Below are positions 46,120 to 62,208 of a DNA stretch of 64,000 nt, piece after piece. Each line of letters begins with the position of its first letter. Position 1 is the first letter of the stretch. The position numbers and the translations under genes were made by a program. A model generated the notes under the pieces. The model did not search any database. It saw only the letters and a list, made by a program, of their open reading frames with translations, and was not told the origin of the DNA. The DNA comes from Patescibacteria group bacterium (GTDB lineage: Bacteria > Krumholzibacteriota > Krumholzibacteriia > Krumholzibacteriales > Krumholzibacteriaceae), in NCBI GenBank assembly GCA_035529435.1, contig DATKWS010000154.1, forward strand, positions 22,064 through 86,063, given 5' to 3'.

Positions 46120-49068
46120 TTAAGGCGCTTGAGTGGGTGCACTCTGGTCTGATCGTGCGGCGCAACGTTCGACGCCGGGATCGAATCTTCCACAGCAGAT
46201 GAGGGGCGCCCATAAGTGAATATTATCAAAGGTATTACCGGAAGCACGGCTCTTCTCTATCATCTCTCTCTGCATGGCGCAGAGCGCCGCAGTGGCCGAT
46301 GACGCGCCGCCCCACAACTTTTCATAGAACGATGTTACGGCCCTCTCGGCGGCGGCATCCTCTATCGGCCACAGCGAACCGACTACCATGTGTGCGCCGG
46401 AGCGGACGAACGCCCCCGCCAGTCCCGAACCCGCCTGAGCGTACTGTGTGCCGCCCCCGACCGATTCGCACGCCGCAAGAAAGACGAGCCGAACATGCGA
46501 CAGATCGAGCCTCAGAATTTCTTGTTCATCGAGAAGAGCGCCCGAGAGCTCTCTCTCGCCGGTGATCTCCCCGGAAGGTGAGAGGAGGAGGGCCGTTTTT
46601 CCGCTGTGCAGGGGGTAGTGTATGGAGTGTGATGAGATGTGTACCAGGTCGGAACGCTCGATACGGGCGAGTAACGCCTGCCTGGTTGCCCCCGTCCCCT
46701 GGAGCACCGTGCCGTTCTCGAAGAATTGTTGCAGCCGGACAAGCTCCCTTCCGGCGTAATGGAGGGAATCGAGGCGGGGGTAGATCCTGCGCGCGAGATC
46801 GGGAATGACGGCATTGCCGACAATGAGCGGTGCCCGGAAACGCGGTGCGGCCGTCCCGCCGGATTCGCCGGGAGCAGCCACGGGTTCATACTGTGGATCG
46901 GCGGTGCCGGGCACCGCACGGGTGGTCTTCCCACTGCCGGTGTGCAGATCGAGCAGGCTGGGGGAGACGAATATCGTTTTGGATTCCAGGAGAAACCGGT
47001 CCGAGCCGCGAGCCGCCAGGGCGCCGAACGGCAGAAGACGGAGGACGCCGTCGGGGATAAAGCAGAGTATCTCGGCGGATTCGACGAGGGGCGCGAGCGG
47101 CTCGATCAGAAAGCCGTAGAGACGGGATGTAATCCCGGCGATACGGTCCCGGTTCAGGCCGGGTCCGGAATGTCGATCGCTGACGGACGGCCCGCACTGC
47201 TCGATGAACGCGCGCACCTCCCGGTCGAGCGTCACGCTCTCCACGGCGACGCACCGGTGCGTGGCGCCGTTCCTGTTCAACGCCACGAGTATCAACCGGT
47301 CCGGCGTGATCGTGGTTTGGACGATGAGGGCGCACTCCGGAATCCATGCCCGGTCCGCAATGCATGACCTGATGGAATCGTCGAGGGCCATGGATGGGAC
47401 GGACCGGCCGCAGGGATCAGCGTGCCGCGACCGCTCGGCCCAGAAGAGAACGGAATCGGCCCCATGCGATGTCTCGCTGTCGAGACGTATAAGGTCGTCA
47501 TAGATCGAATCGACCAGTTGCACGAGGAAGTGCCTGTTTTCCACGTGCGGTTTCCGCAACGATTCCTCCTCGAAGAGGGCAATGGCGCCTGCGAGAATCT
47601 TTCGGCCGTCGTTCCGGTTCCCCCGGCTGATCTTTGTTTTTCCGAGGAGCCGGCACGATTCGATTTGCTGCATCCAGTAATTTTCCTCGATCGCCAGGCG
47701 CACGGCCTCATCGAGGAGTTCCTCGGCCTGTCGGTAGCGATGCTGCTCGAAGTGGAGACGGGCCATCGCCGTCGTGTATTCGGCCACCCGGCGGTTCTCC
47801 CGAAGCCTGTGTGAGACGGCCAATGCACGTTCGTAACAGGAAAGTGCCTCCTCGGTCTTTCCCGCCGCCGCGTATGTATCGCCGAGCTGTTTCTCCAACT
47901 CGGCGATGTAGTGTTGATCGATGCCGCGCTGTGCGATCGACAGCGCTTTTTCCATTTTGGCGATCGCCTCGCCGAGGTTTCCCGCCGCGCGCTGGATACG
48001 GGAAAGGAGTGCGAGTCCCGATGCAAGGTACTGCTCCGTCGCGTGCGTAACGTAGATGCCGGTCTCGGGTGAGTCGCCGCTCAGCAGTTCCTCGGCGAGA
48101 AGCGTCGATTTCTCCGCGATGCCGGCGGCGCGGTTCGTTTCGCCGAAGCTGTTGAGTAACCGCGCGAGTGTGAGATTTCGAGAGATGGAGCAATTCGGAT
48201 CACAGGCGTGTTCGCTGCAGCGGCAGGCCTGCACGAGCAGGGATTCCGCTTCGACGGTGAATCCTTCGGTGCCGCGGAGGCAGCCGAGAAACGAGAGGGC
48301 CCGGCTCAGGTAGTAGGGGTCCCCGCATCGCTCTGCGTTCGAGAGGCTCAACCGGTAGGCCGCGTCCGCAGCCTCGAAATTCCCCTTCCGCACGTGATAG
48401 GCGCCGATCCGGCCCGAGATGTAACTCACACTTGGCAGGTGCTCGGTATCCCTGTACGTATCGAGGGCCTCCTCGAGGCAGCGCACCCCCTCGGGATCGC
48501 GCCCCGAGGCGAAATAGTAATCGGCGAGCGTTTCGAGCCCTTTGCCGGTCCACCGGCCGCATCCGGCGTCTTCAAGGGCCGCGATGCTCTCCCGGAGGAC
48601 CGTCTCTATCTCCTCGGCCCGGTCGAGCTCATCGTAGATTCTGTCATGGCACCGCACAATGCACCTGCGCGCCGCCGTGTACGCGCTCAATTTCCGCTCG
48701 TCATCGAGGAGGTCTGCGATCAGGAGGGAAAAGTGACGCGAGTGGAACGCCGAATCGAGCAGGTAGGCGATTTTCCCGGCCTCCACGGCGCAGTAGGCGA
48801 AGGTCCCCTGCGCACCGCGTTCATGCGCCTCGAGAAGAAGGTTGAATTGCGGGCTCAGTGCTTTCTCGCTCCAGATGAAGCCGCTTTTTTCGAAGAGTGC
48901 CACGGCGGCGTCATCGCTCAAGAGCTGGGCCGGAATCCCTGATACTTTCACGTACTCGAGGTTGTACATCTCGCCGTCTCCGGGCGCGGGGGCGAGGTGC
49001 ACCGCTGCGCTGATGATGATGTAGGCGAGCGCCGCGTACGCCGGGATATGATAGCGAACTGGTTTCAT
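46120..49068 (-). CDS. TPR-repeat protein with C-terminal CHAT (caspase-like) domain, membrane-anchored
   Basis: N-terminal TM helix. Many TPR-like repeats. C-terminal CHAT with the His/Cys dyad region (VHISSHSIHYP… and LVFLAACESVGG). Confidence 0.7.
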   Translation of the reverse strand: MKPVRYHIPAYAALAYIIISAAVHLAPAPGDGEMYNLEYVKVSGIPAQLLSDDAAVALFEKSGFIWSEKALSPQFNLLLEAHERGAQGTFAYCAVEAGKIAYLLDSAFHSRHFSLLIADLLDDERKLSAYTAARRCIVRCHDRIYDELDRAEEIETVLRESIAALEDAGCGRWTGKGLETLADYYFASGRDPEGVRCLEEALDTYRDTEHLPSVSYISGRIGAYHVRKGNFEAADAAYRLSLSNAERCGDPYYLSRALSFLGCLRGTEGFTVEAESLLVQACRCSEHACDPNCSISRNLTLARLLNSFGETNRAAGIAEKSTLLAEELLSGDSPETGIYVTHATEQYLASGLALLSRIQRAAGNLGEAIAKMEKALSIAQRGIDQHYIAELEKQLGDTYAAAGKTEEALSCYERALAVSHRLRENRRVAEYTTAMARLHFEQHRYRQAEELLDEAVRLAIEENYWMQQIESCRLLGKTKISRGNRNDGRKILAGAIALFEEESLRKPHVENRHFLVQLVDSIYDDLIRLDSETSHGADSVLFWAERSRHADPCGRSVPSMALDDSIRSCIADRAWIPECALIVQTTITPDRLILVALNRNGATHRCVAVESVTLDREVRAFIEQCGPSVSDRHSGPGLNRDRIAGITSRLYGFLIEPLAPLVESAEILCFIPDGVLRLLPFGALAARGSDRFLLESKTIFVSPSLLDLHTGSGKTTRAVPGTADPQYEPVAAPGESGGTAAPRFRAPLIVGNAVIPDLARRIYPRLDSLHYAGRELVRLQQFFENGTVLQGTGATRQALLARIERSDLVHISSHSIHYPLHSGKTALLLSPSGEITGERELSGALLDEQEILRLDLSHVRLVFLAACESVGGGTQYAQAGSGLAGAFVRSGAHMVVGSLWPIEDAAAERAVTSFYEKLWGGASSATAALCAMQREMIEKSRASGNTFDNIHLWAPLICCGRFDPGVERCAARSDQSAPTQAP

Positions 49069-49122
49069 GTCCGGTCCCCGTTCGCTGTATACTATAGCAG
49101 AAAAATACAATAATAATAATGA

Positions 49123-50040
49123 TTATTCTTTAATGAGAGCCCGCGCCTTCTCTGCCCATGGAGAGGTTGGATCCCTGTGGATGTACGATTCGAGATACCG
49201 GTTCGCCTCGGCCGTTTTCCCGGTCGCATGGTATATGATTCCGAGGTTGTAATAGGCCTCGGGAGGTACATGTTCACGTTGTGCAGCATCGATCAGGCGG
49301 ATCAGCGCCAGATCGGTTCTCCCCAGCCTGTACGATACCACAGCGAGATCGTTGTACGAGCGGCCGTCATCCGGCGCCAGGAGTGCGGCCCGTCGGTATG
49401 CCACTTCGGCCCTGTCGAACCGGTTCATGGCGAAATGCAGATGCCCGAGGAGCTGGTGGACTTCCGGATTGCGGGGATATCGCCGAATGAGCTGTTTCAG
49501 TGTGCCTTCGAGTCGTTCGAACCGGCGGTAATCACCCGCTGGATTTCCGCGAATCGCGACCGGTGTTCCGCCCGGTCTGTCCCGCCCGCCGGTGAGGCGC
49601 AGCTCGCCGATCTGTGCGGCTGATAGGACCGTGTCGATCTCCGTCCGGGCCGCCCGCAACTCGGGATCCCAGGCAGGGGAGAGCATGAGGAGGCTCAGAA
49701 CGAAGATCATTGCTATCGAAGTTGCTAGTGCAGAATAGGTTACGGTCGCATGCCACACCCGCGCAAGGAACGGCGCACGAGGAGGGGATTGGCGCGCCGC
49801 CTCAGTAATGCCGGATCTATCTTGCTGCGCGAGCGGTTCCCGCCGAGCGGTACACTGGAGGGCCGGATCCGGCAAGAAGGTCCCGGTCATCTCGTCGAGT
49901 TCCCCCTTTGCGTTGAACAGGGTTGCCAGGCAGCGGGGACAATCCGCAACATGCTTCTCGTACGCCCGGCGTTCCTCATCCGTGAGGCGCCTGTCGAGAT
50001 ATGCCGCGAGCCATTCCTCGTTATTACAGAATTCCTTCAT
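49123..50040 (-). CDS. anti-sigma factor (zf-HC2 N-terminus, single TM, periplasmic TPR domain)
   Basis: HxxxCxxC motif EKHVADCPRC at N-terminus. TM helix. TPR repeats. Immediately downstream of the ECF sigma factor. Confidence 0.6.
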   Translation of the reverse strand: MKEFCNNEEWLAAYLDRRLTDEERRAYEKHVADCPRCLATLFNAKGELDEMTGTFLPDPALQCTARREPLAQQDRSGITEAARQSPPRAPFLARVWHATVTYSALATSIAMIFVLSLLMLSPAWDPELRAARTEIDTVLSAAQIGELRLTGGRDRPGGTPVAIRGNPAGDYRRFERLEGTLKQLIRRYPRNPEVHQLLGHLHFAMNRFDRAEVAYRRAALLAPDDGRSYNDLAVVSYRLGRTDLALIRLIDAAQREHVPPEAYYNLGIIYHATGKTAEANRYLESYIHRDPTSPWAEKARALIKE

Positions 50041-50148
50041 GGCGATTATCGATTAACTCGTTTCCGAGCTTCCCCTTAGTTCATTATAGATTAGACGACA
50101 ATTTTTCGTGTTTCCGCGGTCTATTTGTTAATAGTATGTCAGTTTTTT

Positions 50149-51063
50149 TCAGTGAAACGGATGACCGTGGCCGTCCGGCGGTGTGTTCCACATATCTTCC
50201 CACGAGTGCAGTTCCATGAGGTTCTGCACGATTCCCTGGTAAATTTCCAGTGGTATGCCGGTCTCCAGCAACATCGCTTTCAGCTGCGCGAACAGCTTTT
50301 CGAGGCGCCGGTAGACCAATTGCTCGTTTCCGAGATCGAGCACCTCGCAGATCCTCCTGGCGCTCGCCTTGTGCTCGAACCGGAGCTGGAGAATGATCTG
50401 GTCGCGGTGCGGCAGATGGAGGAGGGCATCGCGGAGGTTCTGCAGCGCCTCGCGGAACAGATCGCTCTCCATGAGAATATCCGGAACCGGTTGCGTACGG
50501 CGTTCCAGTGGCACATGATCACTCGAGGTGTAAGCGGTGCCGTTCAGTGGAACGTTCCGTACTATTGAGGGAGCGAGCAGTTTCTCGATGAGCTTGCCGA
50601 GCCTGCGCTCCCGCGCCGTTTGGATTATGCGCTCCTCGCATTCGATCAGATCGAGGTAGGAGATATGATCTCCCATCTCGGCACGGAGCCCCGCGAGCAC
50701 CTCGTGGATCGGGAGTGCCTGGATGAATGCCAGCTTGAAGTAGCGCCGGTCGACCGGGAGAAGCCCTCCGAGGGCCGTCAGTACGTGCCGGATCCCCTTC
50801 GAGCTTCTGAAATAGTCCCGGCAGTGATTCACCGTTACGATGAACAGCCACGTCGAGAGCGTCGATCTGCCGTTGAACTTGGCGAGCTTTTCGTTTTTGA
50901 GCTTTTCCAGAAGCGAAACGTACAGGTCGCGCGCGATTTCATCGTCATTCACGTACCTGCCGATGATGCTCTGCATGTTATCGGTATAGGTTTCGATGAA
51001 CCGATGCCATGCCGCAATATCGCCGGCCATGATCTTTCTTACGAGATCGAGATCGACCTTCAT
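50149..51063 (-). CDS. ECF-type sigma-70 factor with long sigma2-sigma4 linker and C-terminal extension
   Basis: Region 2 STLSTWLFIVTVNHCRDYFR. Region 4 HTH ASARRICEVLDLGNEQLVYRRLEKLFAQLK. About 300 aa, versus about 190 for a minimal ECF sigma. Confidence 0.6.
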   Translation of the reverse strand: MKVDLDLVRKIMAGDIAAWHRFIETYTDNMQSIIGRYVNDDEIARDLYVSLLEKLKNEKLAKFNGRSTLSTWLFIVTVNHCRDYFRSSKGIRHVLTALGGLLPVDRRYFKLAFIQALPIHEVLAGLRAEMGDHISYLDLIECEERIIQTARERRLGKLIEKLLAPSIVRNVPLNGTAYTSSDHVPLERRTQPVPDILMESDLFREALQNLRDALLHLPHRDQIILQLRFEHKASARRICEVLDLGNEQLVYRRLEKLFAQLKAMLLETGIPLEIYQGIVQNLMELHSWEDMWNTPPDGHGHPFH

Positions 51064-51195
51064 GCTATAATTATAATTGAAAATCGATGGATAGCAACCG
51101 ATAACCCCGGCCGGCGGCAAGGACACTACTCCGTGAGGAAACAGGTGCGCACCGGGAGTGCCGCTTCGCCGGCGGGACGATCTTGTGGTGTGGAT

Positions 51196-51528
51196 CTAGA
51201 GCTGGTTCCTCTCGGGCGGGCGCCGCTCGGGAACGTAGATGTCCGGTACCGATCCCTCGTTCCATTCCCGCGAAACGTACAGGTTGCAGTAGCAGCTTCC
51301 GTACTCCGCCACGTCCGGCTCGCGGTAATCGCACGGACAGATGATATCTTTGTCGTGCTCGCGGTCATCCGCGGCGAGTCGGCACGGGCACGCCATGTAT
51401 CCGTATCGCTCCCTGTTGGTCAGGAGTCCCTGGAGGAGCTCCAGCGTCCGTTCCCGGTCATGATTGAAATAATACCCCTTCGGTTCGTTCAAAGCTTTCA
51501 GCCGTTCGTACAGTTCCTCGACATTCAT
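51196..51528 (-). CDS. ferredoxin:thioredoxin reductase catalytic-subunit-like (FTR-like) [4Fe-4S] disulfide reductase
   Basis: CPC-x16-CPC-x12-CYC arrangement (CPCRLAADDREHDKDIICPCDYREPDVAEYGSCYC) matching the FtrC CPC…CPC…CHC motif. ATG overlaps the upstream glutaredoxin stop. Confidence 0.6.
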   Translation of the reverse strand: MNVEELYERLKALNEPKGYYFNHDRERTLELLQGLLTNRERYGYMACPCRLAADDREHDKDIICPCDYREPDVAEYGSCYCNLYVSREWNEGSVPDIYVPERRPPERNQL

Positions 51529-51785
51529 GACAGGCCCAGCGCCTCCTTCAACTCTTCTTCCCGGTAGCCGACGATCACCCGGTCGCCGATGATGATGGTG
51601 GGATAGGAAAGCCGCTCGTTGAGCCTCCGGAGCTCCTGCAGAACGGCACGTTTCTCCTCCCGCTCCAGCAGATCGACGTCGGTGAACTCGTGTGGTATGT
51701 TGTGTTCCCTCATGAACCGCTTGGCGGCCTTGCAATGCCCGCAGGTGCTGATCGTGTACATTCTTACTGGTTTATCCGGGCCCAC
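51525..51785 (-). CDS. glutaredoxin/NrdH-like small thiol-disulfide oxidoreductase
   Basis: 86 aa with the thioredoxin fold and active site CGHC (YTISTCGHCKAAKRFM). Confidence 0.65.
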   Translation of the reverse strand: MGPDKPVRMYTISTCGHCKAAKRFMREHNIPHEFTDVDLLEREEKRAVLQELRRLNERLSYPTIIIGDRVIVGYREEELKEALGLS

Positions 51786-51820
51786 TGTATTCCTCCTTGA
51801 ACGGGGCCGTTCCGGGCGGT

Positions 51821-52759
51821 CTATCGCGGCGCACCCCGCTCCGTTGCGACATAGAATGTCCGCTCCCCCTGCCTCTGCGGGGCTATGCGGCCCTCACCGG
51901 CGAGACGCGAGAGGAGCTTCGCCACGCCGGGCATCGGGACGCCGAGGGCCCGGTGCAGATCCTCGGCGGTGCACGGTCGCCGCGCGACGAGGGCGATGAT
52001 CTGCTCCCGTACCGCCCGGTCCTCCCGATCCGTTCTCGCCGTCGTTTCGGTGATGATCTCGCAGTTCGGCGCGATGCATCCGCCCGCCTCCTCGAGGGCC
52101 CGTTTATCGAGGGGGACGATGGCCCGCTCGGTCCCGGGGCGCACCGCCGTGTTGAGCTGAACGGCATCGACACGGAGGCGTTTCAAGACATCCCGCAGCG
52201 CCGCCAGGTTTTCGGTATCGGTGTTGAATCCATCGATCAGCAGGATCTCGAGGAGAATCGTTCCGGCGAAATCGGCCGTGAAACGCTCGAGGCCGTCGAT
52301 GATCCCGTGCAGGTCACACCGCTCGTGCGGGCGGTTGATTCTGTTGAATGTACGCTCCAGCGCGGTGTCGAGCGAGGGAAGTACCGTATCCGCATGGAGC
52401 ATCTCGTCGCGCACGGCTGCGCTGTCGAGCAGGGAGCTGTTCGTGATGATCGCCACGGGTATGCTGCTCATCCGCTTCACCTCGAGTATAAGCTCCCCGA
52501 GCCTGAGGTACAGCGTCGGTTCTCCCGCACCGGACAGGGTCAGGTAGTCGGGCTTGTCGGGTATCTGGGAGAGGCGTTCATCGAGCTCGGCGAGGATGCC
52601 GTCGAGCGGAAAGAATTCCCGCCGCTCACACGTTTTGTCCGTCGTCGCCCCGCACTCGCAGTAGACGCAGTCGTACGTGCACGTCTTGTAAGGGATGATG
52701 TCGATGCCGAGTGATCTGCCGAGCCGCCGTGACGGCACCGGCCCGAAAATACGCTGCAC
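51821..52759 (-). CDS. radical SAM protein (COG0731-like Fe-S oxidoreductase)
   Basis: CxxxCxxC cluster motif CTYDCVYC preceded by the conserved GPVPSRRLGRSLGID N-terminus. Confidence 0.7.
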   Translation of the reverse strand: MQRIFGPVPSRRLGRSLGIDIIPYKTCTYDCVYCECGATTDKTCERREFFPLDGILAELDERLSQIPDKPDYLTLSGAGEPTLYLRLGELILEVKRMSSIPVAIITNSSLLDSAAVRDEMLHADTVLPSLDTALERTFNRINRPHERCDLHGIIDGLERFTADFAGTILLEILLIDGFNTDTENLAALRDVLKRLRVDAVQLNTAVRPGTERAIVPLDKRALEEAGGCIAPNCEIITETTARTDREDRAVREQIIALVARRPCTAEDLHRALGVPMPGVAKLLSRLAGEGRIAPQRQGERTFYVATERGAPR

Positions 52760-52844
52760 GCCCCATACTCCCGGGAAAGGGTGACCTGACCACCGGACGG
52801 ATAATACATGCGAAATGTATTATATCGTGATGCGTTTTACCAGG

Positions 52845-52980
52845 CTAACCTTAATCCGTCATTCTTTTGGATGTGAATGTTCGGCCGGGCGCCGGTGCGC
52901 TGCGGAACTCGCCGTCGGCCGCCGTCCCTACGCGCCCGCCCGGTCCATCAATTACGACAGTATTAACAAATTAAGGCTCA
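52845..52980. mobile_element. MITE-like element copy 2 (internally deleted, about 136 bp)
   Basis: Shares the left TIR CTAACCTTAATCCGTCA and a roughly 65-bp near-identical core with copy 1. The right TIR is partly degenerate. Confidence 0.45.
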
Positions 52981-53091
52981 TTCTCCAACGACGCTGTCAA
53001 TGCTTGCGGAATCGGCTTGAATCGATCATTATCAGTATCGACGAGTTGAACGAGAACAATGTTCTGTGTCATCCCTTCGAGGGGGATTTTC

Positions 53092-54960
53092 ATGAGTAAC
53101 GTTTTTTCGGGCTTGTACCAGGAAAAGAAACGGTCTCCCGACGATCTGGTGAAACTGATACGTCCCGGGAGCAGGATATTTATCGGATCGGGCGCGGCCG
53201 AGCCGCAGACCCTGATCAAGGTGTTGATCGAGAAGGGCAAGTATATCGAAGATCACGAGACGATCAACCTGCTCGAACTGGGTACGACCCCGTACGCCGA
53301 ATCGGTGCTCAGCAAACCGTTTCACAAGAACGCATTCTTTATAGGGCAGAATGTCCGTGACGATGTAAACGAGGGGAGGGCAGAGTACACGCCGATCTTT
53401 CTCTCCGAGCTGCCGTCGTTGATACGGTCGGGGCGTCTCAAGATCGATGTGGCGCTGATACAGGTGGCCCCCCCCGATAACTACGGTTTCTGCTCACTCG
53501 GCGTATCGGTCGACATCGTGAAGGCCGGGGCCGAGAGCGCGCGGCTCGTCATAGCGGAGGTCAACAAGCAGATGCCCCGCACACTCGGGGACTGCTTCGT
53601 TCACCTCAAGGACATCGATTACATAGTCGAGAGCGACACGCCCCTCGTCATGTGGTCGCCGCCCAAGCCGGACGAGGTTTCAGATCGTATCGGCCGGAAT
53701 GTGGCGCGCCTCATCGGCGACGGCGCGACGATCCAGGCGGGAATCGGCATGATTCCGAACGCGATCCTTTCCCACCTGCACGACAAGCACGATCTCGGCA
53801 TCCACACGGAGATGTTCTCGGACGGGATTATCGATCTCGTCGAGAGCGGGGTTGTCACGAACAGCAAGAAGTCGATCCACAACGGCAAGATCATCGCCAC
53901 CTTTTGCATGGGGACGCAGCGTCTCTACGATTTCGTCGACGACAACCCGCTGATAGAATTCCACGCGTGCGATTACACCAACGATCCGTTCATCATCTCG
54001 CAGAACAACAAGATGATTTCGATCAACGCGGCTATCCAGGTCGATCTCACCGGGCAGGTCTGCGCCGATTCAATCGGCGAGTACTTCTACGCGGGGATCG
54101 GGGGACAGGTCGATTTCGTGCGCGGCGCGGCCCGGTCCAAGGGGGGCAAGCCGATCATCGTGCTTCCCTCGACGGCGAAGCACGGCACGGTATCGCGTAT
54201 CGCCCCCTACCTGGACCAGGGTGCCGGCGTCGTGACCTCGCGGGGGGATGTTCACTACGTGGCGACCGAACACGGGATCGCCAATCTCCACGGGCGCAAC
54301 CTCATGGAGCGCGCCCTCGCTCTCATCAGCATCGCGCACCCCGATTTCCGCAATGAGCTGCTGAACTATGCCAAGCAGCGGCGTATCGTGCATGTGGACC
54401 AGATGCCGCTCGCGGGCGCGGGCCGGTTCTACCCGGAGAAATACGAGCATACGGTCGTCTTCGGCGATGTAGAGGTTTTCTTCAGACCCGTCAAGCCGAC
54501 CGACGAGGCGCTCGACCGGGCGTTTTTCTATTCGCTGAGCGACGAATCGATCTACTACCGCTTCTTCAACATCGTCAAATCGATGCCGCACGAGAAGATC
54601 CAGCCGTTCGTGAACATCGATTACCGCGAGGAGATGGCGATCGTGGGGTTTCTCGGCGAGCCGGGGGACGAGGAGATCATAGCGATCGGTCGTTTCAAGA
54701 ACGATCCCGCAGACAACGAGGCCGAGGTGGCGTTTCTCGTGGGGGACGACTGGCAGAACCGCGGGATCGGCACGCACCTGATGCGGAAATTGATCGAGAT
54801 AGCGTGCGATATGGGGATCGAGGGATTCAAGGCGGAGGTGCTCGCCGATAACAAGAAGATGCTGCACGTATTTCACAAGGTCGGCTACCCGATTCACAGC
54901 AAACTCGAGGCAGGATCGTACTTCATCCGTATCGTATTCTCCGAGGGAGGCGCGAAGTGA
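53092..54960 (+). CDS. acetyl-CoA hydrolase/CoA-transferase family domain fused to C-terminal GNAT acetyltransferase
   Basis: N-terminal about 460 aa with GIGxxPNA and GGQVDF CoA-transferase signatures. C-terminal GNAT motif A (QNRGIGTHLMRKLIE). Confidence 0.7.
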   Translation: MSNVFSGLYQEKKRSPDDLVKLIRPGSRIFIGSGAAEPQTLIKVLIEKGKYIEDHETINLLELGTTPYAESVLSKPFHKNAFFIGQNVRDDVNEGRAEYTPIFLSELPSLIRSGRLKIDVALIQVAPPDNYGFCSLGVSVDIVKAGAESARLVIAEVNKQMPRTLGDCFVHLKDIDYIVESDTPLVMWSPPKPDEVSDRIGRNVARLIGDGATIQAGIGMIPNAILSHLHDKHDLGIHTEMFSDGIIDLVESGVVTNSKKSIHNGKIIATFCMGTQRLYDFVDDNPLIEFHACDYTNDPFIISQNNKMISINAAIQVDLTGQVCADSIGEYFYAGIGGQVDFVRGAARSKGGKPIIVLPSTAKHGTVSRIAPYLDQGAGVVTSRGDVHYVATEHGIANLHGRNLMERALALISIAHPDFRNELLNYAKQRRIVHVDQMPLAGAGRFYPEKYEHTVVFGDVEVFFRPVKPTDEALDRAFFYSLSDESIYYRFFNIVKSMPHEKIQPFVNIDYREEMAIVGFLGEPGDEEIIAIGRFKNDPADNEAEVAFLVGDDWQNRGIGTHLMRKLIEIACDMGIEGFKAEVLADNKKMLHVFHKVGYPIHSKLEAGSYFIRIVFSEGGAK

Positions 54961-56102
54961 CGGAGACAACGGGTGTCACCGCCGTATTCGTCAATGCTCC
55001 GCGGCTCGGCGAGTTTCAATTCAGCCCTGATCATCCCTTCAAACCGGAGCGCATATCCCGGGTCTACCGTATGTGCCGGGAGCGGGGCCTGTTCTCCGGT
55101 CCCGGTGTGCGGGTCGATGAAGTGCGTGAGGCCGATCCCGGCGTCCTCGAGCGTTTTCACACACCGGCGTATATTGCGGCGCTGAAACGGGCCGACGGGG
55201 GCGATGATGTCGATCTCGACATGCTCCATCACGGTATCGGATCGATGGAGAATCCGGTCTTCCGGGGAATTCTCGAGTTCTCGACCCTCTCCGCCACGGC
55301 GAGCCGCCGAGCGGCACGGATCGTCCTCGAGGGGGCGGAGAGCGCCTTCAATCCCTGCGGCGGATTTCACCATGCTCATCCCGACCGTGCGTCGGGTTTC
55401 TGCTATGTCAACGATGTCGCGATCGCAATCGGGGAGCTGCGGGAGGCGGGCAGGCGCGTGGCCTATGTAGACATCGACGCGCATCACGGCGATGCGGTAC
55501 AGGAGGCCTTCTACGGCGACGCGTCCGTTCTCACCGTATCGATGCACGAGACGGGAAAAACGCTCTTTCCCTGGGGCGGATTCGAACGCGAGATCGGGGA
55601 GGGGAGCGGCAGGGGATTCAATATAAATATTCCCCTCGAACCCGGCACCGACGACGAGATCTTCATGCTCCTCTTCAGGGAAATCACACTGGAAGCCCTG
55701 CACCTCTTCCGGCCGGATGTCGTCGTGGGTCAGTTCGGGACCGATATGCTCGCAACCGATCCCCTCACACACCTCAAGCTCACCAACAACGGCTATATCG
55801 AGGCGGTGGAGTTGCTCCACAGGCATTTCCCCCGCATCGTCGCGCTCGGCGGCGGCGGATACCGGATGGAGGATGTCGTCAAGGGATGGACGCTGGTGTG
55901 GGCGGAGCTTGCCGGTATCCGGCTCGATGAGGGGTACGGTGGAGCGCTGGGGGGAGTCCTGCTTGGAGATTCGTCGATCCAGGGATCGGATCTCCGCGAC
56001 ATGCGGCTCTACACCACGGGACCGGTCAAGGAGAATCTCGTCGCTCAGGCCGAACGGCTCATCGCGCATTTTCGCGAAACGATAAAACCCCTTCTGTCGT
56101 AG
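54957..56102 (+). CDS. acuC: histone-deacetylase-family protein (AcuC/AphA-type lysine deacetylase)
   Basis: Zn/active-site motifs GFHHAHPDRASGFCYVND, DIDAHHGDAV and MHETGKTLFP. GTGA start overlaps the upstream gene. Confidence 0.8.
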   Translation: MTETTGVTAVFVNAPRLGEFQFSPDHPFKPERISRVYRMCRERGLFSGPGVRVDEVREADPGVLERFHTPAYIAALKRADGGDDVDLDMLHHGIGSMENPVFRGILEFSTLSATASRRAARIVLEGAESAFNPCGGFHHAHPDRASGFCYVNDVAIAIGELREAGRRVAYVDIDAHHGDAVQEAFYGDASVLTVSMHETGKTLFPWGGFEREIGEGSGRGFNINIPLEPGTDDEIFMLLFREITLEALHLFRPDVVVGQFGTDMLATDPLTHLKLTNNGYIEAVELLHRHFPRIVALGGGGYRMEDVVKGWTLVWAELAGIRLDEGYGGALGGVLLGDSSIQGSDLRDMRLYTTGPVKENLVAQAERLIAHFRETIKPLLS

Positions 56103-56314
56103 CATGATCCGATAGCACTTGCCGGAGCACGGACCGTTTGCACGACCGTACGTCCCGTGGACGGACCGGCGCGCGTGGAATTCTCCGGGTGCCGAAGAAA
56201 GTATTTGAATGTACGTATCCAACGTCTTATGTTACTTCACGTCATATCGATACCGCGTGCGCGATTGATCGCGCCGCACGGGAATGCCGTGGGAGAAACC
56301 GTTTGAGCGTCGGA

Positions 56315-58741
56315 ATGGAATTCATAGAGGCGGAACTGAACGCCCTGATCGATGCCATACGTGAATCGGGCGGCTCGCGGGAAATCGAACGTGCGCTGCA
56401 AGAAGCGGTCGAGTCGGTCCATTACGGGAAGGTCCCGGATGAGGACGGGCTGATCGAGTTGATCCGCAATGTCATCGGCATCTCCAAGCCGTCGATACTC
56501 TCCCGGGGCTGGGAGGAGACCTGGGGCAACCTCTTCTCGCATCTCATTCAGATCATACAGAGTGGCGAGCGTGGAACTGAACGGGTGATCTCGTACCTGT
56601 ACGGGAACGCCGTTCTCCCCGATACGGTGAGGGATGAGCGTATTCTGTGCGTGAATCCCGGTTCGACATCGACGAAGCTGGCGCTGTTCCGGGGGCTCAT
56701 GCGCGAGGCGACCGCCGAGGTGCATATTCCACCCGATTTCGACGACAGTGTCGAGAGCCGCTGCGAGGCGATCATCCAGTGGGTGGAACAGCGGGGCATC
56801 GCGCCCGGCGGGCTGACCGGCATCTCGTGCCGGGGCGGTTTCGTTCTTCCCGTACCGACGGGCACCTACAAGGTGTGCAGCGAAATGGTGGAGGATCTCT
56901 CCGAGCCCCGCATCCAGCACGCATCGAACATGGCAATCCCGATCGGCCTGCGGCTCAAGGAACGGTTTGGAAACGGCGGCAATCTTCTCATCACCACGAC
57001 CGATCCCGTCGCATCCGACGAGATGGAAACCGGGGTGCGGCTCACCGGCATCCTGAGGATTCTCCGCGATGGGTCGGGTGCTCACTACCTCAGTCATCAG
57101 GCGGTTCATCGTCTCACCTGCTCGATCATCGGGTGCGAGCCGGACCGGTTCACGAGTATCAGCGCCCATCTGGGCGGCGGGATATCGATCGTCAGGCACA
57201 TGGACGGGATCATCGGCGATCTCGTGAATGCATTCGCCGGCATTCCGAGTGCGAACCGTTCCGGGAACATACCCCTCGACTGCCTCATGGAGGCGATCGA
57301 TCGGGGCGAGATAAGTTTTCACGAGCTGAAGAAGTACCTCTACCGCGAGGGCGGATTGATAAATCTGACCGGTACGAACGATTTCCGCGCCCTGCTGCAT
57401 TTCAGGGATACCGGCGCCGTCGAGCGGCAGCGGAAAAAGATAGAGCTGGTTGTCGATTTTCTCGCGGCAAACATCGCGAGCTCGGTGATGAAGCTCGCGG
57501 CGGTCGAGGGAGCGATCGACGTCGTTGTTCTCACGGGAGGCCTCTCGCGGAGCTCCGAGTTCACCGGCCGTATAAAGCGCAAGGTTTTTCCCTACTTTCC
57601 CGTTGTCGTGATACCCGGTTCGATCGAGCATGAATCGATGGTGGCCGGTCATCTCCGCGCCCGGTACACTCGCGGTGAGATGAAGGATTACCGGATCGAG
57701 CGCGACCGGCTCAGGCGGCGGCGGATGGAGGAGCGGGAACTCCTCGAGACGGAGATTTTCCCGCATCCGCACCTGCGCAGGCGCGAGAGCGCCCCGATCA
57801 CGAGCCTCGACGAGCTGGTGTACATGTCCCGCTCGCTCGTGGCCAAGTATCGCGCTCCGCGGGTCGCGATCGTCGGGGCCGAGAACGAGGATGCGGTGGT
57901 GGCGGCCAAACAGGCCAATGAGGAGGGTCGGTATCCGGTCGCCAAGTTTCTCCTCGTCGGTGACTATTACGAGGTCAACAAGCTGGCGTGGGAGTACGAT
58001 ATCACGGTCGACGGCGATAACTACACGATCGTCGACTCCGATGACCCGGTTGCACGGGCCGTCGAGCTGCTCGATGCGGGGGAGGCGGACCTTCTCATGA
58101 AGGGGAGGGTCAAGACGGCCGAAATCATGGGGGGAGCCCTTCACTATCTCAAGGCAAGCAAACGCCTCAAGAAGGACCGCATCTACAGCCATGTCGGTAT
58201 CTTCCAAATACCCAATTATCCCAAGCTTCTCATGGTGACCGACGCGGCGCTGATACCGAGCCCCACGGAGAAGATGAAGGCGAAGATCCTTGAAAACGCG
58301 CTGACGGTCTGCGGGTATCTGAATATCACGAAACCGAAGGTCGCGGTCATCTCCGCGGTCGAGACGATGAATCCGAGCGTCGAATCATCGATGCTGGCCG
58401 GCGAGTTCGCCGCCCGGTACCGGGACCGGACCGACTGCATCATCGAAGGTCCCCTCTCGCTCGATGTGGCGATGGATCCACGTTCCGCGCACGAGAAGAA
58501 ATATGCCGGGCAGATCAAGGGGAACGCCGATGTGCTGCTCATGCCCGACATAGAGGCCGGCAATGTCGTCTACAAGTCGCTCACCGTTTCTTCGGGCGCG
58601 TACCTCGCAGGGGCCATCATGGGGGCGGGTATCCCGATCATCCTGACATCGCGCGGGGACTCGGCGCGATCGAAACTCGCCTCGATCTGTCTCGCATGTC
58701 TCATTGCACTGAAGCAGGGGGATTTGCCCCTGGTCGAGTGA
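56315..58741 (+). CDS. fusion protein: N-terminal about 100-aa domain + butyrate-kinase-like acyl kinase + phosphate butyryl/acetyl-transferase
   Basis: ASKHA-fold kinase motif ILCVNPGSTSTKLALF. C-terminal Ptb/Pta fold (ISAVETMNP, GPLSLDVAMD, ADVLLMPDIEAGNVVYK). Confidence 0.7.
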   Translation: MEFIEAELNALIDAIRESGGSREIERALQEAVESVHYGKVPDEDGLIELIRNVIGISKPSILSRGWEETWGNLFSHLIQIIQSGERGTERVISYLYGNAVLPDTVRDERILCVNPGSTSTKLALFRGLMREATAEVHIPPDFDDSVESRCEAIIQWVEQRGIAPGGLTGISCRGGFVLPVPTGTYKVCSEMVEDLSEPRIQHASNMAIPIGLRLKERFGNGGNLLITTTDPVASDEMETGVRLTGILRILRDGSGAHYLSHQAVHRLTCSIIGCEPDRFTSISAHLGGGISIVRHMDGIIGDLVNAFAGIPSANRSGNIPLDCLMEAIDRGEISFHELKKYLYREGGLINLTGTNDFRALLHFRDTGAVERQRKKIELVVDFLAANIASSVMKLAAVEGAIDVVVLTGGLSRSSEFTGRIKRKVFPYFPVVVIPGSIEHESMVAGHLRARYTRGEMKDYRIERDRLRRRRMEERELLETEIFPHPHLRRRESAPITSLDELVYMSRSLVAKYRAPRVAIVGAENEDAVVAAKQANEEGRYPVAKFLLVGDYYEVNKLAWEYDITVDGDNYTIVDSDDPVARAVELLDAGEADLLMKGRVKTAEIMGGALHYLKASKRLKKDRIYSHVGIFQIPNYPKLLMVTDAALIPSPTEKMKAKILENALTVCGYLNITKPKVAVISAVETMNPSVESSMLAGEFAARYRDRTDCIIEGPLSLDVAMDPRSAHEKKYAGQIKGNADVLLMPDIEAGNVVYKSLTVSSGAYLAGAIMGAGIPIILTSRGDSARSKLASICLACLIALKQGDLPLVE

Positions 58742-58831
58742 AACCAATGCGGCTGGCACGCTCGACCGTACCGGCTGCCGAAGCGGCTCACCGCGAAACG
58801 ATGATCACCCGATACGTCCGGAGGTGCACCA

Positions 58832-60538
58832 ATGGAAAAGCGGAGCAAACGCTTAGTGCTGCTTCTCTTCATCGTCTTTTTCCTCGTCGTGATTCCGTTG
58901 ATGGCGTTTTTCGGTCTCTTCTCGCGGGGAGCCCGGACGGGAATCAAGGCAAAGGCGGTGGTTCTCGATGTACAGGGGAGCATGCTCGATTACGAGCCAC
59001 AATTCTCCGCCGGTATCCTTCTGGCCAGGAATGGGAACACCCAGACCTATGTGCTGACCGTCATCGACAGGGCGGCGCGGGATCGGCGCGTCGGGGCCCT
59101 CGTCGTGCGGGTGCTGCCCTCGTCCGCCGGCGCCGCCAAGTGCGATGAGATCCGCAGTGCGCTGAACCGGTTCAGGAAGACCGGCAAGCGGGTGATCGTC
59201 TTCTCGCCGATGCTCGTCAACCACCACTACCTGATCGCCTGCGCCGCGGATTCCGTATTCATGCCCCCCAGCGGATATCTCCTTCTCTCCGGTCCTGCCT
59301 CCAGCGCGATGTTCATTCGCGGGACGTTCGACAAGCTGGGGATCGCACCGAACATTCACCGGATCGGGGAGTACAAGTCGGCGGCCGAGATGTTCACCGA
59401 ACGTGAGAGAACGCCCCCGTCGCGCCGGATGGTCGAACAACTGCTGCGGGATCTCCACGATCGGTTCGTTGAATCGGTGGCCGCCGGCCGGGGGGTGGGT
59501 GAAGATACCGTTCGCGCATGGATCGACCGCACCCTCTTCAGTCCCCGCAATGCGCTGCGGGAGGGTCTCATAGACGGCGTCCGGTACTGGGACCAGATCG
59601 TTTCGTCGCTCGGCGGTGGGCGCACGGAGCTCGTGAATTCGCGCGAGTACATGCGCTCGGCGGGAGCGATCTCCCTCGCTGCGCCGCGCATCGCCGTTGT
59701 GCATGCGCAGGGAAGGATCGTCATGGGGGAGAGCGGAATCGATCCGGTCGACGGTCTCACGATGGGATCGGAGACGATCACCCGCGAACTGCGCAGGGCG
59801 CGCACCAGCAGCCGGATCGATGCGGTCATTCTCAGGGTCGATTCCCCCGGCGGCGATGCGCTCGCCGGTGAGATGATAGCCCGCGCCGTCGAGATCACTG
59901 CCCGCGAAAAACCGGTTGTCGTGTCGATGTCGGATGTCGCCGCATCGGGTGGATACGAGATCTCCTACCGGGCCGATTGCATCGTCGCGCTTCCGGGAAG
60001 CGTGACGGGATCGATCGGATCGATCATCGGAAAACTGAACATGCGCGGCCTGTACAACCGCATCGGTGTGACCAAGGATGAGATCGGCATCGGGGGGAAG
60101 GCCCTGATGAATTCCGATTACCGTGATTTCAGCGACGAGGAATGGGACGTCATCAAGGAGGAGCACTGGGCCTTTTACCGCGACTGGATCGCCGATATCG
60201 CCCGCCGCCGCGACATGACGGTGGAGGAGGTGGACTCGCTTGGCAGGGGGCGTGTCTGGACCGGCAGCCAGGCGATCGAGCGGGGATTGATAGATGAGCT
60301 TGGAGGACTCGATCGGGCGCTCGAAGAGGCGTGTGACCTCGCCGGCATCGAGGATCCCTCACGCGTCGTCCTGGTGCATTACCCCGAGCGGATGAGCCTG
60401 GTTCAGATTCTCCTCTCCGGCCGGTTGTTCGACGGTACGGTCGAGTATGCATTACACGCCGCGCTTCAACGGGTCCTTGCGGGGAGCGGACCGGTCATGT
60501 TCCGCCGTGAATTGCCGGAATCGATGGATATGCGCTGA
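58832..60538 (+). CDS. sppA: signal peptide peptidase SppA, 67K (tandem S49 domain) type
   Basis: N-terminal TM anchor. Two ClpP/crotonase-like S49 repeats with the catalytic Ser/Lys regions (SMSDVAASGGY). Confidence 0.8.
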   Translation: MEKRSKRLVLLLFIVFFLVVIPLMAFFGLFSRGARTGIKAKAVVLDVQGSMLDYEPQFSAGILLARNGNTQTYVLTVIDRAARDRRVGALVVRVLPSSAGAAKCDEIRSALNRFRKTGKRVIVFSPMLVNHHYLIACAADSVFMPPSGYLLLSGPASSAMFIRGTFDKLGIAPNIHRIGEYKSAAEMFTERERTPPSRRMVEQLLRDLHDRFVESVAAGRGVGEDTVRAWIDRTLFSPRNALREGLIDGVRYWDQIVSSLGGGRTELVNSREYMRSAGAISLAAPRIAVVHAQGRIVMGESGIDPVDGLTMGSETITRELRRARTSSRIDAVILRVDSPGGDALAGEMIARAVEITAREKPVVVSMSDVAASGGYEISYRADCIVALPGSVTGSIGSIIGKLNMRGLYNRIGVTKDEIGIGGKALMNSDYRDFSDEEWDVIKEEHWAFYRDWIADIARRRDMTVEEVDSLGRGRVWTGSQAIERGLIDELGGLDRALEEACDLAGIEDPSRVVLVHYPERMSLVQILLSGRLFDGTVEYALHAALQRVLAGSGPVMFRRELPESMDMR

Positions 60539-60543
60539 ACCGC

Positions 60544-62208
60544 TCAGAATCGGTACCGGAGATCAAGGATGAGATACAGCATGTTTCCGGGAGTGAGAGA
60601 GGAACCCGAGTAGAGATCGAAGACGAGGCTGTTTTTGTAGTTCAGCGAGAATCCGACCGTTGCGGAGTAGTCGGACTGTATCTCGTCCTCCGCGTTCTCC
60701 GCCATGGATATGCCTTCGAGTGCCCGGTACACCATGCGTCCCGTACCGTTTGATACGGGTGCGCCGGAGGGAACCCGGGCAGACTCGATATAGATCGGTG
60801 GTATGAGGTACGCCTCGGTGTCCCGGATCCATCCGACCTGGGTGGTGAATCCCGCAAACAGGGTGAAATAGCCGGCCGGCCTGAACTCGACTGCTACCGG
60901 TATGACCAGCTGTGCGTGGATACGCTCCATTTCGAAATGGGAAGGACACGTGACCGATGTCTCCTCCACGGCGATGTCATACACCGTTTTTCTCTTGAAT
61001 CGGGCCGTTGGTTCCTCCTTGTTCAATGAACGGCAGAACGAACCGCTGAATCCGGCGGTCACATCGATCCTCCGCTCGAGGCGGAATGTCTTGCCTCCCT
61101 TGACGAAGATGGAGTATTCGGTGAAATCGCCTTCTCCGGTTATCGCCTGGTACGAAATGAAATCGGTCGTGAAGCTGCGCCACTTGTAATCGCGCCGGGT
61201 TTTGATCCAGTCTCCGTCGTACGCCGCGGTGTGATATCCGCCGCCGGCGAATATTCTGAATCCCTTCGCGAACGTGTGCCGCCCCCACAGATCGAACGAC
61301 CACATCGTTCCGTCCTTGTCGTCGATCCAGTCGAAACGGGTGTAATCGTAGCTCGTCCGCGTTCCGGTCGATACCTGATACCCGTTCTTGATATCGAGAA
61401 AGAAATCCTCCGTGCGCACGTTCACTTCGCCCTCGGAAATCCTGAACATCAACTCGCTGTCATTTCCGTTTTGTGTGCCCGAAAGCAGTCCGACCTGGAG
61501 ATACGGGGACAGCCAGCGCCGTGTTTTCTCGTCGTAATCGTGCCGTCTCTCGGTGTCGTGGAGATACGTTTCTCCATAACTCTCCGTGAACTGGTACCGT
61601 TCGGTGTATTTGGTCACCTGCTGCGTCCAATGGTAGTAGCAGTCGAATGCGCCGATACGGAAGCCGAGGATACGATCCTCTCCGATGCGCCGGGAGCAGG
61701 AAACGGCCGCGTGCATGTAATTGTTTTCGTTGTTGTTACGAATCGAGCTCAATGTGTTCGTGAAATCCAGGCCGGAGTAGGACACCTCGGGATACGAGTC
61801 CGTTTCATCGTCCGTATCGATGAACCACTCCGAAATCAGTGCGATATCGCATCCCCGCAGCCTGATGCCGTGGGCTAGCAGTTCATTGGTACGGTACTGG
61901 CCGGTTTCCGGCCTCGCGAGGATCTGGGTCATGTTGAACTGGAGGAATGGGAAGCGGTATACGGGCGATTCCCTCTGTCCATAGTTGATGGTGAATCCGT
62001 CGGACAACGATGCGTATGCCGGATTGAACATCAGATCGGTGTAGTAATCCGGTATGATGCCGGAAACGGCCGATCCGCCCAGTGCGTAGATACGCGCCGA
62101 GTAGTGTGTCTGTGCCCCCGCTCCCGGGACGTAACAGATCGGTACGATCGACGATAGCGCGATAATGGTCATCAGCCTGTATCGGGGCACCGGCATCGCA
62201 ATCTCCAT
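60544..62208 (-). CDS. hypothetical outer-membrane beta-barrel protein
   Basis: Signal peptide. Alternating amphipathic beta-strand pattern. Ends in the aromatic C-terminal residue motif (…DLRYRF). Confidence 0.45.
   Translation of the reverse strand: MEIAMPVPRYRLMTIIALSSIVPICYVPGAGAQTHYSARIYALGGSAVSGIIPDYYTDLMFNPAYASLSDGFTINYGQRESPVYRFPFLQFNMTQILARPETGQYRTNELLAHGIRLRGCDIALISEWFIDTDDETDSYPEVSYSGLDFTNTLSSIRNNNENNYMHAAVSCSRRIGEDRILGFRIGAFDCYYHWTQQVTKYTERYQFTESYGETYLHDTERRHDYDEKTRRWLSPYLQVGLLSGTQNGNDSELMFRISEGEVNVRTEDFFLDIKNGYQVSTGTRTSYDYTRFDWIDDKDGTMWSFDLWGRHTFAKGFRIFAGGGYHTAAYDGDWIKTRRDYKWRSFTTDFISYQAITGEGDFTEYSIFVKGGKTFRLERRIDVTAGFSGSFCRSLNKEEPTARFKRKTVYDIAVEETSVTCPSHFEMERIHAQLVIPVAVEFRPAGYFTLFAGFTTQVGWIRDTEAYLIPPIYIESARVPSGAPVSNGTGRMVYRALEGISMAENAEDEIQSDYSATVGFSLNYKNSLVFDLYSGSSLTPGNMLYLILDLRYRF

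Follow-up and report, generated by a model that had tools for sequence, protein, structure and literature searches.

The stretch of DNA analysed here, referred to as the window, spans 64,000 nucleotides of contig DATKWS010000154.1 (assembly GCA_035529435.1) and includes a gene whose product joins a coenzyme A (CoA) transferase to a C-terminal GNAT domain. This gene is followed on the same strand by one for an HDAC-family deacetylase and by one for a fusion of butyrate kinase and phosphotransbutyrylase (Buk-Ptb). Judging from the sequence, the locus is probably a reversible lysine-acylation switch acting over the metabolism that connects short-chain acids, acyl-CoAs and ATP.

Organization of the locus and identity of its domains

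The features on which the analysis draws are listed by their positions in the window, each with the evidence for it.

53092 to 54960, + strand: coding sequence of the CoA-transferase-GNAT fusion, 622 amino acids (open reading frame (ORF) with Pfam domains; identical protein, P0001, in three assemblies)
53116 to 54390, + strand: family-I CoA-transferase domain of the 4-hydroxybutyrate/butyryl-CoA transferase type, residues ~9-433 (PDB sequence and structure matches)
53809 to 53811, + strand: codon of the predicted catalytic Glu240, in the motif HTEM (HTEM identical in aligned 4-hydroxybutyrate CoA-transferases)
54100 to 54117, + strand: GGQVDF loop, the glycine-rich CoA-transferase signature, residues 337-342 (conserved in PDB homologues)
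54397 to 54957, + strand: linker and Pat-type GNAT domain, residues 436-622 (PDB sequence matches, Foldseek, conservation)
54724 to 54726, + strand: codon of Glu545 (in AEVAFLV), the equivalent of PatZ E809 (residue-by-residue alignment with PatZ)
54754 to 54771, + strand: GNAT motif A or P-loop, Q555-N-R-G-I-G560, predicted to bind the acyl-CoA pyrophosphate (pattern match)
54957 to 54960, + strand: GTGA stop/start overlap of the fusion and deacetylase genes (direct sequence reading; same 4-nucleotide overlap in public gene calls)
54957 to 56102, + strand: coding sequence of a class-I HDAC-family zinc deacetylase, HDLP/AcuC-like, 381 amino acids (Pfam Hist_deacetyl, E 2.8e-79)
56315 to 58741, + strand: coding sequence of the Buk-Ptb fusion, 808 amino acids (NCBIfam profiles, public gene call)

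An earlier note on this DNA, made from the letters alone, had proposed a GNAT fused to an acetyl-CoA hydrolase/transferase-family domain with a GGQVDF signature, a stop codon overlapping the GTG start of an AcuC-type HDAC-family gene, and a Buk-Ptb fusion downstream. Each of these elements was recovered. Pfam assigns AcetylCoA_hydro to residues 21-183 (E 9.8e-31), AcetylCoA_hyd_C to residues 274-427 (E 9.8e-67) and the GNAT family Acetyltransf_1 to residues 508-599 (E 3.2e-11) of the 622-residue product. A Shine-Dalgarno sequence, GAGGGGGA, lies at 53079-53086, 5 nucleotides ahead of the ATG at 53092. A longer product starting at the ATG at 53059 is possible; the start at 53092 is preferred on the basis of this Shine-Dalgarno sequence, public gene calls and homologue alignments that begin there.

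The N-terminal half of the fusion is apparently an active CoA-transferase, as its sequence retains the catalytic residues intact. Residues 9-432 match the solved 4-hydroxybutyrate CoA-transferases 9vag (E 4.4e-148), 3eh7 (E 3.1e-133) and 3gk7 (E 1e-118), as well as Yersinia RipA, and the features that mark members of the AbfT/Cat/RipA group, namely a catalytic glutamate, a glycine-rich loop and a two-domain alpha/beta fold, are all present. Conservation was evaluated across 118 fusions, which are the full-length members with the same domain order among the 120 best database matches (56-100% identical). The Glu240 position, which we take to agree with Glu238 of 3gk7 in the AbfT literature, holds glutamate in 117 of these proteins. 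G337, G338, D341 and F342 are invariant (118/118), and the GGQxDF glycine-rich loop to which they belong presumably forms the oxyanion hole of the CoA-transferase. Family-I CoA-transferases use a catalytic glutamate to form a glutamyl-CoA thioester, and Glu249 of RipA is the conserved catalytic residue of its CoA-transferase group (PMC3180442).

Column identity across the fusions is 0.8-0.9 in the CoA-transferase half versus 0.6-0.8 in the GNAT half. The former shares 55-61% identity with standalone enzymes, about equal to its identity with distant fusions, and the standalone homologues stop at residue ~433, shortly before a conserved D436-Q437 junction. Scores fall far below the cut-offs of the NCBIfam butyryl-CoA:acetate CoA-transferase equivalog TIGR03948 (308 bits against 674.8) and of NF053666 (125 bits against 740). 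Fourteen positions distinguish fused from standalone CoA-transferases (e.g. E37, H263 and H291), and these differences are uninterpretable because all of the standalone sequences come from a single clade, Melainabacteria/Obscuribacterales.

The C-terminal half is assigned, by sequence and by structure prediction, to the Pat/PatZ subtype of protein-lysine acetyltransferases. It begins at the D436-Q437 junction and includes a Y447-P448..E452 segment and a YYRFF motif (488-492). The top PDB matches of residues 437-622 are all protein-lysine acetyltransferases, comprising residues 707-874 of Escherichia coli PatZ (5.5e-24), the GNAT of Streptomyces lividans PatA (1.1e-18), mycobacterial Pat (4orf, 3.7e-14; 4ava, 6.3e-10) and Sulfolobus Pat (1.5e-6). 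The alignment with PatZ starts in the Pat-specific YP..E segment and includes YYRFF, and the NCBIfam Pat profile scores 84.6 bits against this GNAT. Of the 118 fusions, 105 have Glu at position 545 and the other 13 have Asp; the PatZ equivalent of this residue, E809 (E123 in SlPatA), is a key catalytic residue (PMC12184503). Motif A of GNATs follows the pattern R/Q-x-x-G-x-G/A (PMC8556138). Its absence would have undone the proposal of the earlier note, and QNRGIG is instead present and nearly invariant, with Q in 115/118, G558 in 118/118 and G560 in 117/118 fusions. Thus, every Pat catalytic-domain feature that could be checked was found, namely motif A, the catalytic glutamate and Pat enzymes as closest relatives.

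An AlphaFold2 model of the fusion, built with 49 homologues, has a predicted local distance difference test score (pLDDT) of 81.6 and a predicted template-modelling score (pTM) of 0.81. Its CoA-transferase half superimposes on 3eh7, 3gk7 and 2oas with target-normalised template-modelling (TM) scores of 0.88-0.93, and its GNAT half on 4u5y, a complex of the SlPatA GNAT with the Acs C-terminal domain, with a Foldseek TM score of 0.91 and a root-mean-square deviation of 2.0 Å. The Foldseek structure search found no solved structure that joins a CoA-transferase to a GNAT.

The second gene is coupled closely to the first. The TGA stop codon of the fusion (54958-54960) overlaps the GTG at 54957, which is the sole start codon within the first 20 codons of the deacetylase gene and is preceded at 6 nucleotides by GGAGG (54946-54950). 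The GTGA overlap is kept only in the source genome and its very close relatives, and gaps of ~9-100 nucleotides are found in other relatives. Tight operon linkage of the two genes is therefore conserved, whereas the exact overlap is not.

The best PDB match of the deacetylase is Aquifex HDLP (1c3r, E 4.7e-61), followed by Clr6, HDAC1/2/3, RPD3 and HDAC8, which places the enzyme closest to class I rather than to class II or the acetylpolyamine amidohydrolases (APAH). Residues H138/H139, D174, H176, D263 and Y302 align with H131/H132, D168, H170, D258 and Y297 of HDLP. The active-site set is complete (His-His dyad, Asp-His-Asp as zinc ligands, catalytic Tyr in the GGGGY loop), so that catalytic residues are intact in the CoA-transferase, GNAT and deacetylase alike. 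The AcuC name itself derives from the NCBI and JGI pipelines, which call its homologues ‘acetoin utilization protein AcuC’.

A gap of 212 nucleotides separates the deacetylase stop codon from the Buk-Ptb ATG at 56315; an alternative TTG start at 56138 was rejected, and the ATG agrees with the public 808-residue gene call. Among NCBIfam profiles, butyrate kinase NF002834 scores 227 bits (cut-off 222, passed), and phosphate butyryltransferase TIGR02706 scores 239 bits, which is under its cut-off. The lysines K121, K375, K596, K613, K637, K728, K754 and K787 (808-residue numbering) are invariant in Buk-Ptb, and no feature was found that separates regulatory from catalytic ones among them. The protein also carries an N-terminal extension of ~105 residues (56315-56630) that is predicted to be mostly helical and has no Pfam match. 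This extension is present and moderately conserved in 26 homologous fusions, and could be a docking or regulatory segment.

Searches for other elements yielded little. Rfam detected no RNA element in 52500-59000, repeat scans of both intergenic regions returned nothing notable, and a scan for sigma-70 promoters and terminators gave background levels that do not delimit the transcription unit. A 442-residue antisense ORF (54894-56222, - strand) was set aside as a mere shadow of the deacetylase coding sequence and not a gene; comparable ORFs in relatives occur solely as shadows of conserved sense genes in GC-rich DNA.

Distribution and genomic context of the fusion family

The identical 622-residue protein occurs in an NCBI contig from a metagenome-assembled genome (MAG), in an ENA assembly and in a JGI metagenome, and the ENA assembly has a different upstream gene. 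A search of metagenomes with the GNAT region alone produced at least 590 matching stretches. From the 80 loci kept, 78 have a CoA-transferase fused directly upstream of the GNAT; one of the two others lacks upstream DNA and the second (L150) is an exception. Hence, the GNAT subtype of the fusion is almost never unfused in this sample. Among the top 150 GNAT matches from a library clustered at the 50% identity level, ~38 have a length of 585-665 residues and carry the GNAT at the C-terminus, and Pfam confirmed the same architecture in the representatives that were tested. Because the identical protein is present in three assemblies and at least 118 full-length homologues exist, we regard the fusion as real rather than a chance ORF pattern. 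The concern of the earlier note that an assembly or gene-calling artefact might have joined two genes can be put aside as having practically no chance of being correct, given a single uninterrupted ORF, three independent assemblies, the common domain order of the homologues, the 78 fused metagenome loci and the conserved D436-Q437 junction.

The database search for this domain order, which had been suggested as a check, extends the family to several bacterial phyla and an archaeon. Members, all from MAGs, derive from Krumholzibacteriota, Latescibacterota, Planctomycetota/Sedimentisphaerales, Chthonomonadales (Armatimonadota), Myxococcales and a Methanomassiliicoccales archaeon. Hundreds of them are present in databases under generic names, such as the JGI label ‘acyl-CoA hydrolase/GNAT superfamily N-acetyltransferase’. 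The architecture is therefore uncharacterised rather than rare: it is unusual, as had been supposed, in being missing from published classifications, but it is abundant in metagenomes. The NCBI label ‘Patescibacteria group bacterium’ attached to a 100%-identical protein is probably wrong, as all close relatives belong to Krumholzibacteriota or Latescibacterota, and the DNA has ~60% GC and large multidomain genes.

Several variants carry the same GNAT subtype. One Myxococcales MAG encodes proteins of 960-1067 residues (P0191/P0409) that combine a 4Fe-4S dicluster domain, a CoA-transferase and a GNAT. Another variant adds an unassigned C-terminal extension of ~400 residues to the fusion (P0170), and a further one has an N-terminal GNAT with a Peptidase_C39-like domain (P0248).

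Gene neighbourhoods were compared for 121 non-redundant fused loci, grouped by the identity of their GNAT to that of the window protein. Denominators are the informative loci.

GNAT identity >=64% (Krumholzibacteriota type): deacetylase directly downstream in 44/44; Buk-Ptb within 5 kb in 33/40; AMP-forming acetyl-CoA synthetase (Acs) or ADP-forming acetyl-CoA synthetase (ACD) within 5 kb in 0/40
GNAT identity 55-63%: deacetylase directly downstream in 4/8; Buk-Ptb within 5 kb in 4/7; Acs or ACD within 5 kb in 0/7
GNAT identity <55%: deacetylase directly downstream in 3/54; Buk-Ptb within 5 kb in 0/40; Acs or ACD within 5 kb in 12/40 (6 Acs, 6 ACD)

The deacetylase is thus a partner of the fusion in some lineages only. 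By comparison, the genes that recur beside the fusion are those for the interconversion of short-chain acids, acyl-CoAs and ATP, and their order is not fixed. In three loci of the intermediate group (L086, L100 and L101), Buk-Ptb comes first, then the fusion, then the deacetylase. In the archaeal (Methanomassiliicoccales) locus L081 an Acs gene lies ~50 nucleotides upstream of the fusion, Acs genes are found directly upstream of it in other loci as well, and two loci (L163 and L165) have an ACD gene 16-19 nucleotides upstream. The Acs neighbours retain the lysine of the PX4GK motif, as PKTRSGK or PRTRTGK.

The same association is recovered when the search is reversed: of four distant Buk-Ptb fusions (45-53% identical), three adjoin a CoA-transferase-GNAT gene, and these three fusion genes keep their catalytic motifs. 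In L169 and L172 the order is Acs, Buk-Ptb, CoA-transferase-GNAT. In L171 (L171:6001-14070), which lies on a 1.49-Mb contig, Buk-Ptb, Acs, ACD and CoA-transferase-GNAT form a four-gene operon with overlapping genes, which brings all of the acid/acyl-CoA/ATP routes together with the putative regulator. Locus L169 also holds a standalone ORF of 103 residues (L169:5666-5977) that corresponds to the Acs C-terminal domain only (AMP-binding_C), with the motif PRTGTGK. It sits between the full-length Acs and Buk-Ptb genes, upstream of the CoA-transferase-GNAT gene, and because Pat GNATs recognise the Acs C-terminal domain, it may act as a decoy or adaptor, or may be the remnant of a gene.

Other genes surround the locus. 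Upstream, a divergent cluster (51196-52759, - strand) contains genes for a glutaredoxin, for a protein resembling the catalytic subunit of ferredoxin-thioredoxin reductase and for a radical SAM protein that ends in a TrmB-like winged helix. The radical SAM gene keeps its divergent position next to the fusion in most Krumholzibacteriota loci, and a Thioredoxin_3 gene precedes the fusion in two unrelated loci (L084 and L085), so a redox link is possible. Farther upstream (46120-51126, - strand), genes for a 996-residue TPR/CHAT protein, a zf-HC2 anti-sigma-like TPR protein and a 325-residue protein with sigma-70 region 2 only stand in a row; this cluster looks like a signalling module and is partly syntenic in relatives. 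Downstream, a gene for the signal-peptide peptidase SppA (58832-60538) is a conserved neighbour, and beyond it lies a 600-residue ORF (60544-62346, - strand) that has no Pfam match and gives the impression, from its sequence pattern, of a beta-barrel outer-membrane protein.

A putative acylation switch and alternative readings

From these domains and neighbourhoods we infer the activities of the domains, the direction of control, the identity of the target and the acyl group, and combine them in the following model. The CoA-transferase half would move CoA between thioesters of the acetyl-CoA and butyryl-CoA type and free short-chain acids by way of a Glu240-CoA thioester. In the Pat/PatZ enzymes, acetyl-CoA binds to the N-terminal domain, which exerts allosteric control over the GNAT (PMC8556138, PMC12184503). 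The CoA-transferase domain may fill the role of the inactive ACD-like domain of Pat/PatZ because it would bind, and also turn over, the same acyl-CoA pool, and it could in this way make GNAT activity depend on how the acyl-CoA/acid pool stands. Lysines on the enzymes of short-chain acid, acyl-CoA and ATP interconversion would then be acylated by the GNAT. The likeliest target in the source genome would be the presumably co-transcribed Buk-Ptb fusion, and likely targets in other lineages would be Acs, at its PX4GK lysine, and ACD. Where several routes link the same pools, such acylation might limit futile cycling and the over-drawing of CoA. The HDLP/AcuC-like deacetylase is predicted to strip the acyl groups, rendering the switch reversible. 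The earlier suggestion of an acylation cycle tied to short-chain acyl-CoA pools thus gains support from the predicted domains, the catalytic residues and the neighbourhoods across lineages. Taken as a whole, with an active CoA-transferase, a Pat-type writer acting on acid/acyl-CoA/ATP enzymes and an HDAC-type eraser, the model is one towards which we lean with moderate confidence.

A number of observations weigh against it. Pairing with the deacetylase is missing from most distant lineages (3/54), and Acs or ACD genes lie within 5 kb in just 12 of the 40 distant informative loci. Many distant fusions (the L113-L161 group) adjoin unrelated NT5C-like, MinC and MinD genes, a neighbourhood that looks like plain synteny. 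No Acs or ACD gene was found in the 64-kb window. To our knowledge, Buk-Ptb is not among the documented substrates of Pat enzymes, and its nomination as a target is for this reason drawn from the gene neighbourhood only. The co-location with Acs, ACD and Buk-Ptb genes could also stem from the metabolic role of the CoA-transferase alone and be silent on the targets of the GNAT. Finally, the structure model has low confidence near functional loops (residues 60-100, 328-336 and 488-495).

The CoA-transferase domain might instead carry no flux and act purely as an acyl-CoA-binding domain for regulation or oligomerisation, as the ACD-like domain of Pat/PatZ does. This would agree with all characterised multidomain Pat enzymes, in which the non-GNAT domain is regulatory and non-catalytic (PMC8556138, PMC6456759, PMC12184503). 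The locus L127, where a standalone CoA-transferase gene (1-1233, - strand) lies divergently beside the fusion (1495-3333, + strand), is relevant to the question of remaining flux through the fused domain, and the second enzyme could provide the metabolic activity there. However, the ACD-like domain of Pat has lost its catalytic histidine (PMC8556138), whereas the fused domain has kept Glu240 in all but one of the 118 proteins and GGQxDF in every one, is more conserved than the GNAT half, and resembles standalone enzymes as closely as it does distant fusions. We consider a domain that only senses to be unlikely, though still to be reckoned with.

In another arrangement, the CoA-transferase would make the very acyl-CoA that the tethered GNAT uses, so that the type of acylation reports which carboxylate is present; for example, acetyl-CoA and butyrate or 4-hydroxybutyrate would give butyryl-CoA or 4-hydroxybutyryl-CoA. 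The two active sites are conserved and sit on one polypeptide, the pTM suggests a defined arrangement of the two domains, the GNAT subtype is almost never unfused in the metagenome sample, and enzymes specific for butyrate are linked to the fusion, with the Buk domain passing its NCBIfam cut-off. Conversely, Pat-type GNATs are best known to act with acetyl-CoA or propionyl-CoA, and acyl-CoA diffuses freely, which makes channelling needless. We therefore regard generation of the donor in situ as a rather long shot. An equally speculative extension is that the CoA-transferase turns any available free acid (butyrate, 4-hydroxybutyrate or propionate) into its thioester, with acetyl-CoA as the donor of CoA, that the tethered GNAT at once transfers the acyl group to lysines of Buk-Ptb, Acs or ACD, and that these distinct acylations, erasable by the HDAC-type enzyme, re-route the acid/acyl-CoA/ATP node. 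If true, the fusion would add a sixth architecture to the prokaryotic lysine acyltransferases, the first in which an accessory domain makes the acyl donor.

The GNAT could also acylate its own CoA-transferase domain, in cis or across an oligomer, with the deacetylase reversing the modification to tune CoA-transferase flux. The fusion does place a writer and a potential target in one oligomer, PatZ is known to autoacetylate (PMC6456759), and many distant loci have no obvious target gene adjacent. Nevertheless, self-regulation does not account for the repeated linkage, in varying gene order, with Acs, ACD and Buk-Ptb, nor for the lysine canonically modified by Pat enzymes that the neighbouring Acs genes encode, and we give it little credence.

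Least probable of these readings, and by our estimate very improbable, is that the GNAT acylates and the HDAC-family enzyme deacylates a small amine (a polyamine, an amino acid or an acetoin-related compound) as part of a catabolic route that supplies the CoA-transferase and Buk-Ptb with acetate or butyrate; some bacterial HDAC-family enzymes are indeed acetylpolyamine amidohydrolases (PMC8556138), the pipelines supply the name ‘acetoin utilization protein’ and the GNAT superfamily acts mostly on small molecules, but the closest relatives of this GNAT in sequence and fold are exclusively protein-lysine acetyltransferases, down to the Pat-specific YP..E and YYRFF, the deacetylase is of class I (HDLP, HDAC1/2/8-like) rather than the class II APAH type, and an operon whose enzymes both made and broke the same bond in a small molecule would work against itself.

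Relation to known acylation systems

Pat-type reversible lysine acylation is the best-understood post-translational control of prokaryotic carbon metabolism, and its enzymes provide the natural reference for the preferred model of a Pat-type writer fused to an active CoA-transferase. Prokaryotic GNAT lysine acetyltransferases are sorted into types I-V, with ACD-like, cAMP, ACT and NADP+ accessory domains (PMC8556138, PMC6456759, PMC12184503). A CoA-transferase partner does not appear in these classifications, and literature searches found no description of one. The earlier note had listed NDP-forming-synthetase-like, ACT and cAMP-binding partners as the known ones, a list that holds and to which NADP+-binding domains are to be added.

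The fusion family therefore has an apparently functional CoA-transferase where the characterised multidomain Pats use a non-catalytic sensor. It is widespread in uncultivated anaerobes, and its operons bring it together with each of the three enzyme classes that exchange short-chain acyl-CoAs for ATP. Should the model hold, it would extend the type I-V classification and would offer a candidate regulator of the switches between fermentation and oxidation of butyrate and acetate in sediment and digester communities. The three proteins of one operon would, in addition, make a simple in vitro system for asking how the acyl chain is chosen in bacterial lysine acylation.

The closest relatives in domain logic are Pat of Salmonella enterica and PatZ (YfiQ) of E. 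coli. These share the GNAT subtype, with its catalytic glutamate, motif A, YP..E segment and YYRF motif, as well as a large N-terminal domain that descends from an acyl-CoA-metabolising enzyme and binds acyl-CoA (in the fusion, by prediction) and, in several lineages, a linkage to Acs. The N-terminal domain of Pat/PatZ is a catalytically dead NDP-forming synthetase-like region of ~700 residues, whereas that of the fusion is a CoA-transferase of ~430 residues with its catalytic residues kept. Pfam detects no CoA_binding, Succ_CoA_lig or ATP-grasp domain in the fusion, which sets it apart from the type I/II Pat architecture. The enterobacterial eraser for Pat is the sirtuin CobB, whereas a zinc-dependent HDAC-type enzyme lies beside the fusion. 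Type III Pat enzymes, which include mycobacterial cAMP-Pat (Rv0998/MSMEG_5458), ACT-GNAT and the NADP+-binding MxKat, likewise place a metabolite domain ahead of a homologous C-terminal GNAT, but their N-terminal domains are small, non-enzymatic ligand sensors and that of the fusion is a full-size and apparently catalytic enzyme.

Considered from its other half, the fusion is related to the 4-hydroxybutyrate CoA-transferase AbfT of Clostridium aminobutyricum (3GK7), the Porphyromonas gingivalis enzyme 3EH7 and the butyryl-CoA transferase RipA of Yersinia. These have the same fold (38-47% identity in structural alignments), the HTEM catalytic-glutamate motif and the GGQxDF loop. Unlike the fusion, they lack a GNAT and stop at the position corresponding to residue ~433.

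The closest operon analogue, matched in logic only, is acuABC of Bacillus subtilis, which adjoins acsA, the gene for a short-chain acid activation enzyme controlled by AcuA and AcuC. That operon encodes a GNAT and an HDAC-type deacetylase together (PMC8556138), and in both systems a writer and a zinc-dependent HDAC-family eraser are encoded side by side. In contrast to AcuA, which is a single-domain GNAT of another subtype, the writer considered here is joined to a CoA-transferase. The neighbouring gene is Buk-Ptb and not Acs, and no AcuB-like gene (CBS/ACT) was found in 46-62 kb of the window, so that the locus is not itself an acuABC operon. The physiological logic that we propose would nonetheless be the same as in the control of Acs by Pat and a deacetylase, or of acsA by acuABC.

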